A DNA stretch of 64,000 nt from the NCBI RefSeq assembly GCF_011045215.1, contig NZ_CP049201.1; one strand, given 5' to 3'. Within the stretch, counting starts at the first letter, position 1, and every line of letters begins with the position of its first letter. The notes below the pieces were generated by a model. It was not told where the DNA came from. It saw only the letters and a program-made list of their open reading frames with translations, and searched no databases. This stretch comes from Escherichia coli. Its GTDB lineage: Bacteria > Pseudomonadota > Gammaproteobacteria > Enterobacterales > Enterobacteriaceae. The translations under genes and the position numbers were made by a program. Shown here piece by piece: positions 21,598 through 25,929 of this stretch.

Positions 21598-22956
21598 TTA
21601 TGTCAGTAGTTTTTGCAGATGGATGAGCAAACGGTCAATCGCACGATAGCTAACTGCCTCCTGCAAATGCTGACGTGTGATAATGTCAGACTGATCAATA
21701 TCAGCAATGGTTCGTGCAACTTTCAATAACCGCTGCCAGGCACGAATCGATAACCCCAGATGGATCAGCGTTTCTTCCAGCCACTGCGCATCTTCGCTCT
21801 CAAGCTTGCAGAATTTGCGTATTTCCGGACTATCCAGCCAGGCATTCAGTTTATTCTGCCGCTTAAATTGGCGCTCTCTGGCGGCCATTACGCGTTGTTT
21901 AACGGTGGCGCTGCTTTCTCCCGGCACTACCGTTTTACTCAAAATGCCGGGGGGTGGTAATGGGATCTCCAGTGAGAGATCGAAGCGGTCGAGAAAGGGC
22001 CCCGAGAGCCGGTTGAGATAACGTAATGTCTGTTCTGGCGTGCAGCGGTTATGGTTTCCCTGATAATGTCCGGTAGGGCTGGGATTCATCGCCGCAACAA
22101 GCTGGAAACGGGCTGGATAGGTTATTTTTGCTCGTGTGCGTGAAAGATGGATCTGCCCGGATTCAATCGGCTCTCGCAAAGCATCCAGTGTACGCCGTTC
22201 AAATTCAGGTAGCTCATCAAGAAAAAGCACGCCGTTATGCGCCAACGAAATTTCACCAGGCCCTGGAATTGCACCACCGCCCACCATCGCAGTTAACGAC
22301 GCACTGTGATGCGGTGAGCGGAACGGGCGCTGCCGCCATTGTTTTTGTACTGATTCAGCATTTACCAGACTTAATATCGCAGCGCTCTCCAGTGCCTCTT
22401 CATTGCTTAAATCTGGCAAAAGACCATTAATACGGCTGGCGAGCATTGTTTTACCTGTTCCCGGCGGTCCAATCAGTAAAAGGTTGTGCCCACCAGCGGC
22501 GGTAATTTCCAGTCCTCGCTTTCCTTGCTCCTGACCGACAACATCACTGAGATCATGTTGTAGCGCCCGGGATACTGCATCAGTTGGTTTCGGGCGTTCG
22601 AGAGTGTGCTTACCTTCCAGAAACGCACAGACAGCCTGCAGATGATCGGCTATCAAGCATCCTTCTCCGTTAATTAGCCCCACTTCATCTTCGTTATCTT
22701 TCGCGACGATAATTTTTCTGCCCGACTTAATAGCTTCAGTTGCACTGGAGATTGCGCCGGGAACGCCACGCAGAGCGCCTGTAAGCGCCAGTTCTCCGAC
22801 TAATTCATATTCATCTAACTTATTGGCTGTAAGCTGTTCTGAGGCCGCCAGCAACGCAATGGCGATAGGTAAATCATATCGTCCCCCTTCTTTTGGTAGA
22901 TCGGCTGGAGCAAGGTTAATGGTGATTTTTTTCGCCGGATATTCATATCCGCTATT
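21598..22956 (-). pseudogene. comM: comM C-terminal fragment (Mg-chelatase-like AAA+ competence protein), separated from its 5-prime end by the island
   Basis: ORF 21598..23001; ComM-like sequence from ...NSGYEYPAKKITINLAPADLPKEGGRYDLPIAIALL onward; the first codons (GTG at 23001, MIYQLDSISYANLV) are island-derived. Confidence 0.85.
22947..22956. repeat. left junction direct repeat (att core copy) ATCCGCTATT
   Basis: Identical 10-mer at 35360..35369; comM coding sequence is continuous across the two copies if the intervening DNA is removed. Confidence 0.8.
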
Positions 22957-23026
22957 TATAACTAAATTCGCATAACTTATTGAATCTAATTGATAAATCA
23001 CACTATAAATAACGTTAGAAATCGCA

Positions 23027-23084
23027 AATTAACTACACCATTAACTACACCGTTCGGTGCACTGTATGGAACAACTTGGAACAA
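23027..23084. repeat. left-arm repeat module: tandem ATTAACTACACC x2 plus GGAACAA x2 (putative integrase arm-type sites)
   Basis: 26-bp exact match AATTAACTACACCATTAACTACACCG with 35207..35232, then shared GGAACAAC(T/C)TGGAACAA. Confidence 0.6.
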
Positions 23085-23172
23085 ATAGACACAAGCGATA
23101 TACAGGAAGGGACAATTTTTCTATGCAGATTTGCATAGTTCCAAATGAAGCTGGTGGATGATCAGGGATAAC

Positions 23173-23196
23173 CCGATATGGGAATCCCCATATCGG
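23173..23196. repeat. 10-bp-stem inverted repeat CCGATATGGG-AATC-CCCATATCGG
   Basis: Perfect 10-bp inverted repeat with 4-nt spacer; no T-run, so more likely a binding site than a terminator. Confidence 0.5.
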
Positions 23197-23201
23197 CATC
23201 G

Positions 23202-23241
23202 CGTAGTTAATCGTAGTGGCTACCGTAGTAGCCTCCGTAGT
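23202..23241. repeat. phased CGTAGT x4 array
   Basis: CGTAGT at 23202, 23212, 23224 and 23236, spacing about 10 to 12 bp. Confidence 0.55.
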
Positions 23242-23282
23242 TGAGTCGCAGGGATGTAACAACCTGCCAGGAAGGAAATGAT

Positions 23283-23318
23283 CGTGACTCGCCGTGACAT
23301 GACGTGATTAATCGTGAC
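23283..23318. repeat. phased CGTGAC x4 array, exact 10-bp register
   Basis: ATCGTGACTC GCCGTGACAT GACGTGATTA ATCGTGACAC: core at 23283, 23293, 23303, 23313. Confidence 0.6.
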
Positions 23319-23386
23319 ACCAAACAAAAAGCCTTACCCGTAGGCTTAATGCTTGGCTTGACTGTAGGCTTACCGTAACGCGCCGC

Positions 23387-23566
23387 TCACCGTCGCAGCC
23401 TGTCCGGTTTCCGCCACTGATACGGCCTCACATTATCATGCTGGTGGCGTTCCTGTTGCAGCACAACGGAAACAGGCGCTGAACACCTGTTAATTTTGCT
23501 TGCTGGTTGTTTGATTCCGGCAATGCTGCGGATCATCTTCAGCAAATCGGCTTCGGTGATGGTCAT
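23387..23566 (-). CDS. small hypothetical protein, 59 aa (below the ORF-track threshold)
   Basis: Hand translation MTITEADLLKMIRSIAGIKQPASKINRCSAPVSVVLQQERHQHDNVRPYQWRKPDRLRR with AAGGTG-like SD upstream of the ATG. Confidence 0.35.
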   Translation of the reverse strand: MTITEADLLKMIRSIAGIKQPASKINRCSAPVSVVLQQERHQHDNVRPYQWRKPDRLRR

Positions 23567-23598
23567 GGTTTACACCTTAGGAAATCTTAGGGGGCTGG

Positions 23599-23858
23599 TT
23601 GACACTTTCCGGCTTAAGACCTTAACAAACCTTAACATCGCAGGTTGACACACTTGACACTTTTTCGCGAAAAACCTTATCAAACCTTAGCATTTCTAAG
23701 CATGGCAACTTGACACTTTTCGCGATTTTTTTCGGCTTTTTGACGTGGTAAATCTGGCGCAAGGCCAGTAACGGCGGGGCTTACAGCGAGGTTGACACTT
23801 TTTCGCGTTCAGAGTGTAAAGTGTCAACCCGGCAAGCTGCTCAACTTGACACTTTTTG
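23599..23858. repeat. array of six direct and one inverted copies of TTGACAC(T)TTTT(T)CGCG, interleaved with AACCTTAnC repeats
   Basis: Copies start near 23599, 23645, 23654, 23710, 23792, 23846; inverted copy 23821; immediately 3-prime of the HTH gene 23862..24389. Confidence 0.6.
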
Positions 23859-23861
23859 ATG

Positions 23862-24389
23862 TCATTGATGGTCTGATTTTTCCCATTCAGCCAGGGCGTT
23901 TAGCCCGGCTTCACTCCATGATTCCAGTTCATCGGCATAATCACCTGCAACATAGCAGAGTTCGCAACGCAGCATACGAATTGCCAGCCTGGCATTACCT
24001 CGCAAATTGTATTGTTCAAAGTAATGCTGCCCGTCGCAATCCTCAAGGCAGATAGCACCATCATCAAGAAAGTGCACTTCCCAGCCTAATTCCCCGGCTG
24101 CATCCAGCACACGCTGCTGTATGCCCTCGTCCGTTGCTGGCGCAGGAATTTTACCGTCTCTGGCCTTAACTGCTTTCCAGAACTCGCCCCACGTCATTTC
24201 CAGCGTTCTCTCTGGCCACATTTCAGAAACTGTGTCTTTTCCCTGTGCTGGTGGGCTGTTCCGCTGCTCTGTCGCTTCCACATCGATTTTTTTACCGGAC
24301 ATGACCACTTCGCCTTTCTCGATCCAGTCGTAAACTGTCTGGCGGCTTACGCCTTTGTGTTTGGCATATTCTGCCTTACTCATCAGCAT
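23862..24389 (-). CDS. island protein A: N-terminal HTH (excisionase / terminase-small-subunit-like) with C-terminal Cys pairs
   Basis: 175-aa ORF MLMSKAEYAKHKGVSRQTVYDWIEKGEVV...; C-terminal CLEDC and CELC pairs; assignment by eye only. Confidence 0.4.
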   Translation of the reverse strand: MLMSKAEYAKHKGVSRQTVYDWIEKGEVVMSGKKIDVEATEQRNSPPAQGKDTVSEMWPERTLEMTWGEFWKAVKARDGKIPAPATDEGIQQRVLDAAGELGWEVHFLDDGAICLEDCDGQHYFEQYNLRGNARLAIRMLRCELCYVAGDYADELESWSEAGLNALAEWEKSDHQ

Positions 24390-24395
24390 TATGAC

Positions 24396-25067
24396 TCACC
24401 CTTCTTTTTCCAGTTGAGCCAGCCGCCCGGATATTTCTTCCAGTTTTTCCAGGGCTGGCTTGCAGGCCGCATCAATAACGTCCCGGACCATTCCGGCAAG
24501 CTGCTCTTCTGCTGTCGGCGTTGTTACCTCCACACCCGATGGTTTCCCATCCTTATCCCATACGCCCAACGGTACGAGTGCAACGTGATCGATAAGAAAT
24601 GGCGTACCCTCAATAAAAAAATTGTCCTCGCCCATTACATCAGGAACTTCAGCCCCACCGGACGCACCACAAAACACAACCGACGGACTGGTGGATACCT
24701 CCCCCCGTGCTTTCTGGATGTAATCGATGATTTCCTGCCCGTAAATCCGGCATACGCCCCACACCTCGTCACCGCGAATATACGGCAACATGACGGTGCC
24801 AATAATGCGCGACCGTTCGCCCACGTCTTCAAGGGTTTTGCTTTCGGGATGGTCGATAATGACGGGTACTCCGGCGCAACGTTCCAGGAACTGCGGATTG
24901 AGATAAGTTTGCGGTGAACGCCAGACAAATTCTTTTTCTTCGGCGCGGTAGGCCATTCCGGTTCCTGTGATACGCAGGTTAACCAGCCACATGTTGGAAA
25001 ACTGATAAGGCGACGGTAGCTGTCCGTCCCGAATCTGCTTCGCCGCCTCAATTTCTGTTAAAAGCAT
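24396..25067 (-). CDS. island protein B, hypothetical (223 aa)
   Basis: Protein-like ORF MLLTEIEAAKQIRDGQLPSPYQF..., same strand and operon as A and C; no family recognised. Confidence 0.45.
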   Translation of the reverse strand: MLLTEIEAAKQIRDGQLPSPYQFSNMWLVNLRITGTGMAYRAEEKEFVWRSPQTYLNPQFLERCAGVPVIIDHPESKTLEDVGERSRIIGTVMLPYIRGDEVWGVCRIYGQEIIDYIQKARGEVSTSPSVVFCGASGGAEVPDVMGEDNFFIEGTPFLIDHVALVPLGVWDKDGKPSGVEVTTPTAEEQLAGMVRDVIDAACKPALEKLEEISGRLAQLEKEG

Positions 25068-25131
25068 AATGTTATCCGGTTATAAGCAATAAGCCCCGCC
25101 AAATCCGGCAGGGCTGAAATCAGCACGTTTT

Positions 25132-25716
25132 TCATGCCCCCGCGAGGCTTGCAACGTTAATTTTAACCAGGCGACGGGGAGGGATTTTGAAAGCACTAAG
25201 CCAGTTATTCGGATCTCCCTGATATTCAGTAATCCGCCGTCCGGCTTCATCCATTCTTACGGTTTTACGCAAATAGCCCGGCGTGTTTTCCACGGCCCAC
25301 TGAGCACTTTCCTGAGCAGCCTTGTAAATCTGATCTTCCAGCACCGCCAGCGTTGCAGAATCTGAAACGGAACGAATATCCACATCACTGAATTTTTTAG
25401 CCAGCTTCTGTGCACCAATTAATGCACGCTTGCGGTAATCCATCGACTTTTCACCAGCAAACGGGGCCGGAGCGCGACGGCCCATATTGCTGTATGCGGA
25501 ATCCGCTTTAGCCTGGGCTTCTGCCAGTGAGGATTCATCTTCGACTGACGCGACGATGTTTTGATTAGCGTTATCCTCGTCCGCTTTTGTGAAATCCTGC
25601 GCGGGGATCGCATTCAGCATTTCGATAATCTCCTGCGGAGTGCTGCCCTGCGACTCTGACAGAGCGTTAACCACCTCCATCAGTTTTAATCGCAAATCTT
25701 CTTTGCTTGCTGGCAT
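25132..25716 (-). CDS. island protein C, hypothetical (about 194 aa)
   Basis: ORF 25132..25725; start placed at ATG 25716 (MPASKEDLRLKLMEVVNAL...) preceded by GAGGTGG. Confidence 0.45.
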   Translation of the reverse strand: MPASKEDLRLKLMEVVNALSESQGSTPQEIIEMLNAIPAQDFTKADEDNANQNIVASVEDESSLAEAQAKADSAYSNMGRRAPAPFAGEKSMDYRKRALIGAQKLAKKFSDVDIRSVSDSATLAVLEDQIYKAAQESAQWAVENTPGYLRKTVRMDEAGRRITEYQGDPNNWLSAFKIPPRRLVKINVASLAGA

Positions 25717-25755
25717 TGTTACCACCTCTCTTTTTTCACCAAAAAATCACGACCA

Positions 25756-25929
25756 TCAGGCCGGACGTTCTACGGGATAAAGCGCCCGCTGCATTAAACG
25801 CCGGGCGACCTCATGAATGCTCGGAGCAATCCCCAGCGGAGAATTGCGGCGTTCCTCGTCCTGGATGCGCTGTAATGCTTCAATCTGCTCACGAGCGAGT
25901 AAAACGGGTTTCACGCTGGCTTTTCTCAT
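25756..25929 (-). CDS. small hypothetical protein, about 57 aa, first gene of the C-B-A module
   Basis: ORF 25756..25953; start placed at MRKASVKPVLLAREQIEALQRIQ... with GGAGAT 6 nt upstream. Confidence 0.4.
   Translation of the reverse strand: MRKASVKPVLLAREQIEALQRIQDEERRNSPLGIAPSIHEVARRLMQRALYPVERPA

Follow-up and report, generated by a model that had tools for sequence, protein, structure and literature searches.

We have analysed a stretch of 64,000 nucleotides from Escherichia coli (contig NZ_CP049201.1 of assembly GCF_011045215.1), here called the window, in which the comM (yifB) gene is split by an element of ~12.4 kb that is read on the minus strand. Near one end of the element lie four co-directional minus-strand genes, in order of transcription S (57 aa, 25756..25929), C (194 aa, 25132..25716), B (223 aa, 24396..25067) and A (175 aa, 23862..24389). 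They come after a gene for a PerC-family regulator, and are followed by a repeat array and then by a small open reading frame (ORF), ORF59. The four genes had been noted with these sizes in a first-pass annotation made from the sequence by eye, and that description holds; PGAP annotates the same S, C, B and A in a 94%-identical island of strain cq9, the RefSeq annotation of which agrees with ours.

The element has an integrase gene at one end with an AlpA-type regulator beside it in the same orientation as the rest, it encodes its own primase, and its size lies within ~10-15 kb. There is no phage structural and lysis gene set, and neither the ORF list nor profile searches revealed a capsid, portal, large terminase subunit (TerL), tail or lysis gene within the element. 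This architecture is typical of Gram-negative phage-inducible chromosomal islands (PICIs) (PMC6092414), and by its gene content we class the element as a Gram-negative PICI-type phage satellite.

Homology and predicted fold of B and C

B and C had been described as proteins without clear motifs, and this did not survive profile searching. B matches the Pfam family DUF2213 (E 4e-6), phrog_6216 (E 1e-80) and, weakly, a PHROG of head maturation proteases, and C matches the C-terminal part of phrog_6216 at positions 402-544 (E 3e-47). In tblastn searches B and C map to one and the same protein in the same 14 phage records. In phage Rac-SA53 this protein is ALP46870, with 430 aa, of which the N-terminal domain corresponds to B with 54% identity and the C-terminal domain to C with 59% identity over ~145 aa. 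Homology of B and C to ordinary structural or metabolic proteins had been named as the result that would count against an undescribed system, and at these identities (54%, 59%) the match to a phage head-assembly protein is a confident one. The homologue of Pantoea phage PdC23 is longer, at 553 aa, through an extra N-terminal NUDIX domain. In both Rac-SA53 and PdC23 the protease/scaffold gene follows those for TerL, portal and a MuF-like head protein and precedes that for the major capsid protein; B is not located between portal and major capsid genes in this way, as the satellite has neither.

B consists of a stand-alone DUF2213 domain with a C-terminal amphipathic helix. Residues ~42-190 of C correspond to the extreme C-terminal domain of the phage DUF2213 protease/scaffold proteins, and residues 1-41 are satellite-specific. 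Compared with Rac-SA53, a linker of ~50 aa rich in Ala, Glu and Lys, built from AEEKAKAD repeats, has gone from the satellite pair, and C has acquired its new 41-aa N-terminus, its ORF beginning at an ATG behind the Shine-Dalgarno sequence GAGAGGTGG. From these alignments the phage gene is seen as split in the satellite into two genes, with the order now C then B. Such an arrangement is rare. B matches 790 cluster representatives out of 1.84 billion searched, and nearly all of them are 350-700 aa in length; the C domain is present at the C-terminus in 121 of the best 150 of these 790. Among the matches listed only one representative carries a stand-alone B like that of the satellite, and its short contig again has C ahead of B, followed by the beginning of a third gene. 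When the Rac-SA53 fusion protein was used as the query, the search returned near-identical prophage copies only, with no diversity.

Both genes are under purifying selection. The dN/dS ratios are 0.13 for B and 0.25 for C (A likewise gives 0.25), with dS saturated against a distant homologous pair (76% protein identity for B and 63% for C).

Many of the phage DUF2213 protease/scaffold proteins (that of PdC23, for example) begin with a NUDIX hydrolase domain of ~125 aa at the N-terminus. As a side effect of this fusion, public records mislabel C-type proteins as 'NUDIX hydrolase' and the Rac-SA53 protein as 'TolA'. A profile built from the alignment of the B+C chimera matched only NUDIX hydrolases in the PDB, because many phage homologues carry the N-terminal NUDIX domain; sequence searches of the PDB with S, C and the B family gave nothing relevant.

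The fold was modelled with AlphaFold2 (AF2) on an artificial concatenation of B and C, using the phage fusion proteins as a paired alignment, and this gave a mean pLDDT of 87.7 with both conserved domains above 90. The top 50 Foldseek hits of the model fall mostly into two families, with E-values of only about 4e-3. The predicted fold of B is of the assemblin type, as in T4 gp21, HK97 gp4 and the herpesvirus assemblin. His73, Ser127 within an STSP motif, and Asp160-His161 of B are invariant in two independent alignments of 52 and 24 diverse homologues. Their spacing presumably fits the Ser-His(-His) centres of the assemblin fold. We conclude from homology that B is a predicted prohead-protease domain, with His, Ser and His of catalytic type intact, and that C is the predicted other conserved domain of the same protease/scaffold protein, the C-terminal one in the capsid interior. 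The Pfam family PF09979 is now named after gp24 of Pseudomonas phage Pa193, the helix-turn-helix of which has been seen bound inside the capsid vertices and which is a proposed scaffold (PMC11456595). C thus shares its C-terminal domain with a helper-type scaffold (residues 42-190, 59%), and from the scaffold annotation of the family we infer that the C-type domain would be the capsid-binding part of the scaffold. P2 gpO, Mu gpI/Z and lambda C/Nu3 may be regarded as analogous protease-scaffold proteins.

The A protein and the repeat array

A comprises an N-terminal winged helix-turn-helix (wHTH, residues 1-42) of the small-terminase/Xis/MerR type and a C-terminal alpha/beta domain. Residues 1-42 match phrog_57, the terminase small subunit (TerS), with an E-value of 1.4e-7, as expected of a TerS N-terminal helix-turn-helix (HTH), and the family alignment shows hardly any variation over the first 41 residues. 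Beyond residue 42 there was no match to a TerS profile. The AF2 model has a pLDDT of 88, with a confident alpha/beta C-terminal domain containing four strand segments. With Foldseek the match of A is limited to the N-terminal ~50 aa, to Xis and BldC, and no fold in the PDB was matched by the C-terminal domain; sequence searches of the PDB with A and its family gave nothing relevant. The family is restricted to Enterobacterales and nearly all members are annotated as hypothetical, and tblastn found 0 matches to A in 50,697 phage records. Some RefSeq records mislabel A as 'MerR family regulator'. The first-pass annotation had described an HTH protein with two Cys pairs. The HTH stands and the pairs are present in this allele, but they are not conserved across the family and we have discarded them as a Zn or other metal-binding site.

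Immediately beyond the stop codon of A lies the array of TTGACAC boxes that had been noted in the same place. It occupies 23598..23855 (with no strand assigned) and comprises six or seven AAAGTGTCAA(C) boxes, five or six of them direct and one inverted, at spacings of 55, 56, 82, 27 and 27. All six exact copies of AAGTGTCAA in the window fall inside 256 bp (23599-23854), compared with an expectation of 0.43 for the whole window, and six copies were reached in 0 of 100 shuffles. At 7 of 7 loci examined (three in E. coli, three in Klebsiella and one in Serratia) the motif AGTGT[AC]AAC is confined to the 420 nt that follow the A homologue; it is absent from the terS-head region of Rac-SA53. Such an association with A across three genera is what one would expect if the protein binds the motif. 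The array is probably the set of sites bound by A, acting as a packaging specificity site comparable to pac or cosB. A second repeat family, ACCTTA-N-CAAACCTTA, is present in four copies at 23574-23700, interleaved with the TTGACAC boxes, and may be the target of another factor or of a host protein that bends DNA.

Distribution, candidate helpers and proposed function of the module

The whole module is present in 21 of 5426 complete E. coli genomes. A further ~145 genomes (166 in total) match in part, mostly with A and the array only among the matches listed. Most E. coli islands that have A and the array do not have B and C (about 145 of the 166 matching genomes). In the island of O104:H4 strain C227-11 unrelated genes occupy the position of B and C, and a pair of genes for an AAA-ATPase and a DUF4435 protein lies downstream of A, between the array and the island end; we take this pair to be a PARIS-type defence system. 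The corresponding slot in the window contains ORF59 only. In Serratia other cargo follows A. In Klebsiella pneumoniae, islands that encode an A homologue together with a D5-type primase lie inside a myovirus-like prophage, and tail-type genes (Dit-like, Pam3_gp18-like and Apex-like) replace B and C before A. At one Klebsiella locus the island lies immediately upstream of a capsid-gene fragment (PF09950; the 3' part, 186 aa). The Klebsiella islands are helper-embedded satellites of a type already documented for PICIs (PMC10111431). A, the array and a small ORF thus form the conserved core, B and C are one of several alternative modules placed before A, and defence cargo goes in the slot after A.

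A DUF2213 gene of the Rac-SA53 type is present in 86 of the 5426 genomes. At least 10 of the 18 listed genomes with a B/C island also carry such a gene, a lower bound since the check was made against 60 of the 86 genomes, and 0.29 would be expected (hypergeometric p = 2e-14, with no correction for related strains; enterotoxigenic E. coli (ETEC) isolates from pigs in one study make up many of the genomes). Strain cq9 has an apparently intact Rac-SA53-type prophage ~32 kb from its island. Rac-SA53-like lambdoid phages are the likely helpers, judged by this co-occurrence. In several genomes (cq9, ETEC1734 and ETEC1747) a related island lies between smrA and abgR, ~32 kb from the head genes of a Rac-type prophage; the island in the window is at comM, a different integrase site. 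We do not claim a capsid family shared with the Klebsiella helper, as the match of the Rac-SA53 capsid to PF09950 (E 0.07) is not significant. The gene in the portal position of the cq9 Rac-type prophage is labelled 'anti-CBASS protein Acb1 family protein' in RefSeq. In Rac-SA53 and PdC23 the gene in this position encodes a DUF1073-type portal, and the Acb1 label looks wrong.

The layout of the module parallels that of a characterised PICI, EcCICFT073. In strain CFT073 the end of that island reads PerC, small ORF, major-capsid homologue, head-decoration homologue, 137-aa ORF, RppA (144 aa), 93-aa ORF and phoQ. The capsid homologue is reportedly c1499, the head-decoration homologue c1500 and RppA c1503 (Fillol-Salom 2018, 2019). 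The two islands share the backbone of int, AlpA, primase and PerC, and the slot order of PerC, small ORF, two head-derived genes, TerS-like wHTH protein, small ORF and attachment site (att); B and C stand in the slots of capsid and decoration genes, A in that of RppA, and ORF59 in that of the 93-aa gene. RppA attaches to the TerS of the helper and diverts packaging to island DNA (PMC6739421). The head genes of EcCICFT073 are of the lambda capsid and decoration type, whereas here there are pieces of a Rac-SA53-type protease and scaffold, and in place of a lambda-like cosN the window has the box array.

Other comparisons bear on B and C. CpmB of the SaPIs and Rcm of SaPIpT1028 are scaffold mimics that resize helper capsids; they have the capsid-binding C-terminal part in common with the helper scaffold and compete with it (PMC12409344). 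By its sequence C resembles them in having the C-terminal domain of a scaffold (~145 aa, 59%). It differs in belonging to a Gram-negative element and an unrelated protein family, in a homology far longer than that of CpmB, and in its pairing with a protease that is encoded by a gene of its own, an arrangement not known from any CpmB or Rcm system. Relative to the DUF2213/Pa193 gp24 fusions of phages, B and C are homologous to both conserved domains and keep the invariant residues and the predicted T4 gp21/assemblin fold, but they are two genes in reversed order, they lack the Ala/Glu/Lys-rich linker repeat and the NUDIX domain that many phage versions have, and the element on which they reside does not encode a capsid, portal or terminase. 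Capsid-forming PICIs (cf-PICIs) are likewise satellites with head-assembly genes including a prohead protease; theirs is a full head set (capsid, portal, protease, adaptors, TerS and TerL), in contrast to the protease and scaffold pieces found here.

Taking these observations together, we put it at a little better than an even chance that the four genes and the array constitute the late operon with which a Gram-negative satellite of the PICI type provides for morphogenesis and packaging, the likely helpers being Rac-SA53-like. Most likely, as the homologies suggest, the module hijacks the capsid assembly and DNA packaging of the helper and is not a defence system. The first-pass annotation had placed the genes where satellites carry helper interference or packaging redirection, and the homologies point that way. 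It had also called them cargo, and they are better described as core late genes of the satellite. The suggestion of an undescribed or defence system is not supported, given the homology of B and C and the parallel with EcCICFT073. At E <= 0.01 none of S, C, B, A and ORF59 matches a family in PADLOC, which, within the range of that database, excludes a defence system already known.

The operon might then operate as follows. A would bind the AAAGTGTCAAC boxes downstream of its own gene and so recruit the helper terminase to satellite DNA, making it a functional analogue of Rpp or of a satellite TerS. C would compete with or replace the scaffold domain of the helper on the major capsid protein, such that procapsids are remodelled or commandeered, and B would equip these procapsids with a maturation protease, which they would not have otherwise. 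A separate protease would be needed because that of the helper is covalently tied to the scaffold that C displaces. The C-terminal helix of B and the new N-terminal helices of C could provide a non-covalent link between the two proteins. The weak hairpin in the C-B spacer could serve as a leaky terminator, giving C in excess of B. S and the palindrome upstream of it would regulate the operon, and an activator or antiterminator encoded by the helper or the satellite would probably be required.

Several observations weigh against this interpretation. No TerS-like oligomerisation core or TerL-binding region was recognised in A, and its HTH also weakly matches excisionases of the Cox/Xis type. A is not a homologue of Rpp beyond the HTH: alignment of the A family with RppA by hhalign covers 28 HTH columns only, with a probability of 31%, and A shows neither whole-length Rpp homology nor the all-helical coiled-coil C-terminal domain of RppC, in place of which it has an alpha/beta domain. 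No RppC chain appeared in the PDB sequence searches, and there is no RppC among the top 50 Foldseek hits for A. A resemblance to lambda cosN near 23390 was rejected, since there was no match with up to 3 mismatches in 23000-23860 and the window-wide counts are those of chance; nor did the DNA of 23020-23870 show similarity to any of the 50,697 phage records. B and C are optional for this satellite family, as most islands with A and the array do without them. The capsid-homologue genes of EcCICFT073 gave no interference phenotype, and the DNA of that island is carried in full-size heads (PMC6092414). The chimeric nature of the fold model, the presumed geometry of the catalytic centre and the relatedness of the strains behind the co-occurrence count on the same side.

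The weak excisionase matches raise the alternative that A is a recombination directionality factor or regulator of the Cox/Xis/MerR type, with the boxes serving as arm-type or operator sites and not in packaging. The HTH matches phrog_575 (Cox-like excisionase/repressor, E 3.5e-4), with phrog_66 and TIGR01764 below threshold, the best Foldseek matches of the N-terminus (probability 0.97, with an E-value that is not significant) are a mycobacteriophage Xis and BldC, and the label of MerR family regulator in RefSeq is in keeping with this. The array moreover always lies between A and the attachment junction, yet at 600-850 bp from the comM junction the boxes are far away for Xis sites. The strongest match of A remains that to the small-terminase family (E 1.4e-7), the protein has 175 aa and a large extra domain, and an AlpA-type excisionase/regulator is already encoded beside int. 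Its positional equivalent in EcCICFT073, RppA, is a packaging factor. We consider this alternative unlikely.

Two further explanations concern B and C. They could be an anti-phage interference or abortive device, in which C directs the protease B to capsid proteins of the helper or a competitor and head assembly is wrecked, to the advantage of the host or the satellite and with no satellite-sized capsids made. We regard this as quite improbable. It would account for the retention of both the catalytic-type residues in B and the capsid-interior domain in C, satellites commonly interfere with their helpers (PMC6739421, PMC6092414), and the optional presence of B and C among islands with A is like that of accessory interference genes. 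But there is no PADLOC match, B and C lie within the late operon upstream of the packaging gene and not in the variable cargo slot after A, and the strong co-residence with Rac-SA53-type prophages fits dependence at least as well as antagonism. Very improbable, in our view, is that B and C are functionless remains of a helper gene once captured, for example when a satellite that had been embedded in the protease/scaffold gene was excised imprecisely. The order of C then B is indeed what would result if an element had inserted in the linker and its flanks were then circularised, and the Klebsiella relatives embedded in a prophage capsid gene, like the documented helper-embedded PICIs (PMC10111431), lend this some plausibility. 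Yet each is an intact ORF that has a start signal of its own and retains every family-invariant residue, and their dN/dS ratios (0.13 and 0.25) are obtained with dS saturated in a distant copy (76% and 63%) that keeps the gene order C, B, A. A simple capture model does not predict that A, the array and ORF59 should stand between B and att.

Returning to the late operon of a satellite, a more specific proposal can be made only tentatively, and we think it doubtful in full. It would amount to a way of hijacking a helper phage that has not been described before, in which the satellite's own protease and truncated scaffold would reprogramme Rac-type procapsids, possibly to a smaller size fitting 12.4 kb, and A would found a non-Rpp family of terminase-redirecting proteins that read the AAAGTGTCAAC array, common to many Enterobacterales satellites including those embedded in capsid genes. 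A split protease/scaffold pair together with a non-Rpp wHTH protein is not described in the literature that we searched. To our knowledge only one family for the redirection of packaging, Rpp, has been worked out in Gram-negative PICIs. The capsid-remodelling genes are still unidentified for PmCI172 (PMC6092414). The module supplies candidates for capsid remodelling, in a mimic of the scaffold domain together with a stand-alone prohead protease, and for the redirection of packaging, in a widespread wHTH protein with an obvious candidate DNA target, and intact Rac-family prophages offer a candidate helper. Toxin genes are found on Rac-family prophages, LT-IIa on Rac-SA53, and a subtilase-family AB5 binding subunit and an ADP-ribosyltransferase on that of cq9. 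Because these candidate helpers carry toxin genes, the interplay of satellite and helper bears on the spread of toxin phages.

Control signals and the island backbone

The two terminators that had been noted upstream of the operon are borne out as tandem intrinsic-terminator hairpins on the minus strand, 3' of perC (26050..26135; -40.5 kcal/mol, z = -4.7, with 0 of 200 shuffles as stable). Both are kept in the cq9 island, and they would be expected to shield the four-gene operon from upstream transcription. The palindrome upstream of S was also found as described, as a set of minus-strand half-sites ATCGTT-N11-AACGAT-N4-ATCGTT at 25979..26011, and is a candidate operator or activator site. As a conserved operator it was set aside, the half-sites being partly degraded in the cq9 island in a comparison of two sequences. 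A promoter scan found no sigma-70 consensus promoter in the interval 25979..26011, and this together with the two terminators suggests control by an activator or antiterminator.

S, the first gene of the operon, encodes a basic protein and is an annotated coding sequence in the cq9 island, where it is 98% identical. It has no match in PHROG, NCBIfam, Pfam, the PDB or PADLOC. That it might be a regulator of the ribbon-helix-helix type is a guess, and stays so because Pfam gives no match. Within the 64-nt spacer between C and B there is a GC-rich 10-bp hairpin with an imperfect U-tract (25092..25115, minus strand), which is weak with a z of only -1.9. ORF59, the small terminal gene (59 aa, 23387..23566, minus strand), is conserved after A and the array. 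It is 44% identical to the terminal 93-aa protein of EcCICFT073 over 32 aa (BLASTP), its C-terminus matches phrog_1561, and in Klebsiella a homologous ORF of 62 aa follows A.

The DNA around the element is E. coli chromosome (ilvY, comM/yifB, ilvG and their neighbours). Both parts of comM are on the minus strand, the C-terminal part at 21598-23001 and the N-terminal part at 35352-35561; the ORF of the C-terminal part has a new start at a GTG, with an N-terminus of island origin. Just inside both island ends is a 26-bp direct repeat, AATTAACTACACCATTAACTACACCG, which is a tandem 12-mer with copies at 23027-23052 and 35207-35232 and may be an integrase arm site.

The satellite backbone extends over 26131..35232, with all of the following genes on the minus strand. 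The integrase (33956-35206) matches phrog_1 (E 7e-72), and the AlpA-like excisionase/regulator next to it (33404-33592) phrog_2790 (E 7e-18). There follow an Ant antirepressor (32551-33351), DUF4222/Icd-like genes (29893-30772), a P4-type primase (28148-29896) matching TIGR01613 above its cutoff, a RepA-helicase remnant (27424-27771), a ProQ/FinO-like protein resembling RNA chaperones (26415-26957, below NCBIfam cutoffs) and the PerC-family regulator (26131-26418). An Rfam scan of the island gave no match.

The 115-aa ORF at 27424-27771 has a match confined to the C-terminus of phrog_2850, and its RefSeq label is that of a RepA helicase without the N-terminus, while the N-terminus of the primase matches the N-terminus of the same phrog_2850. 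This looks like the scar of a swap of replication modules; in related islands the same position is taken by RepA, DUF927 or DUF5906 replicases. A minus-strand ORF of 597 aa at 30765-32558 has an odd composition and is probably spurious. It overlaps two plus-strand ORFs (31153-31629 and 31699-31878) that have PHROG families of the YlcI/YnfO-like kind, and the region around 30765-32558 looks like the divergent regulatory region of the island.

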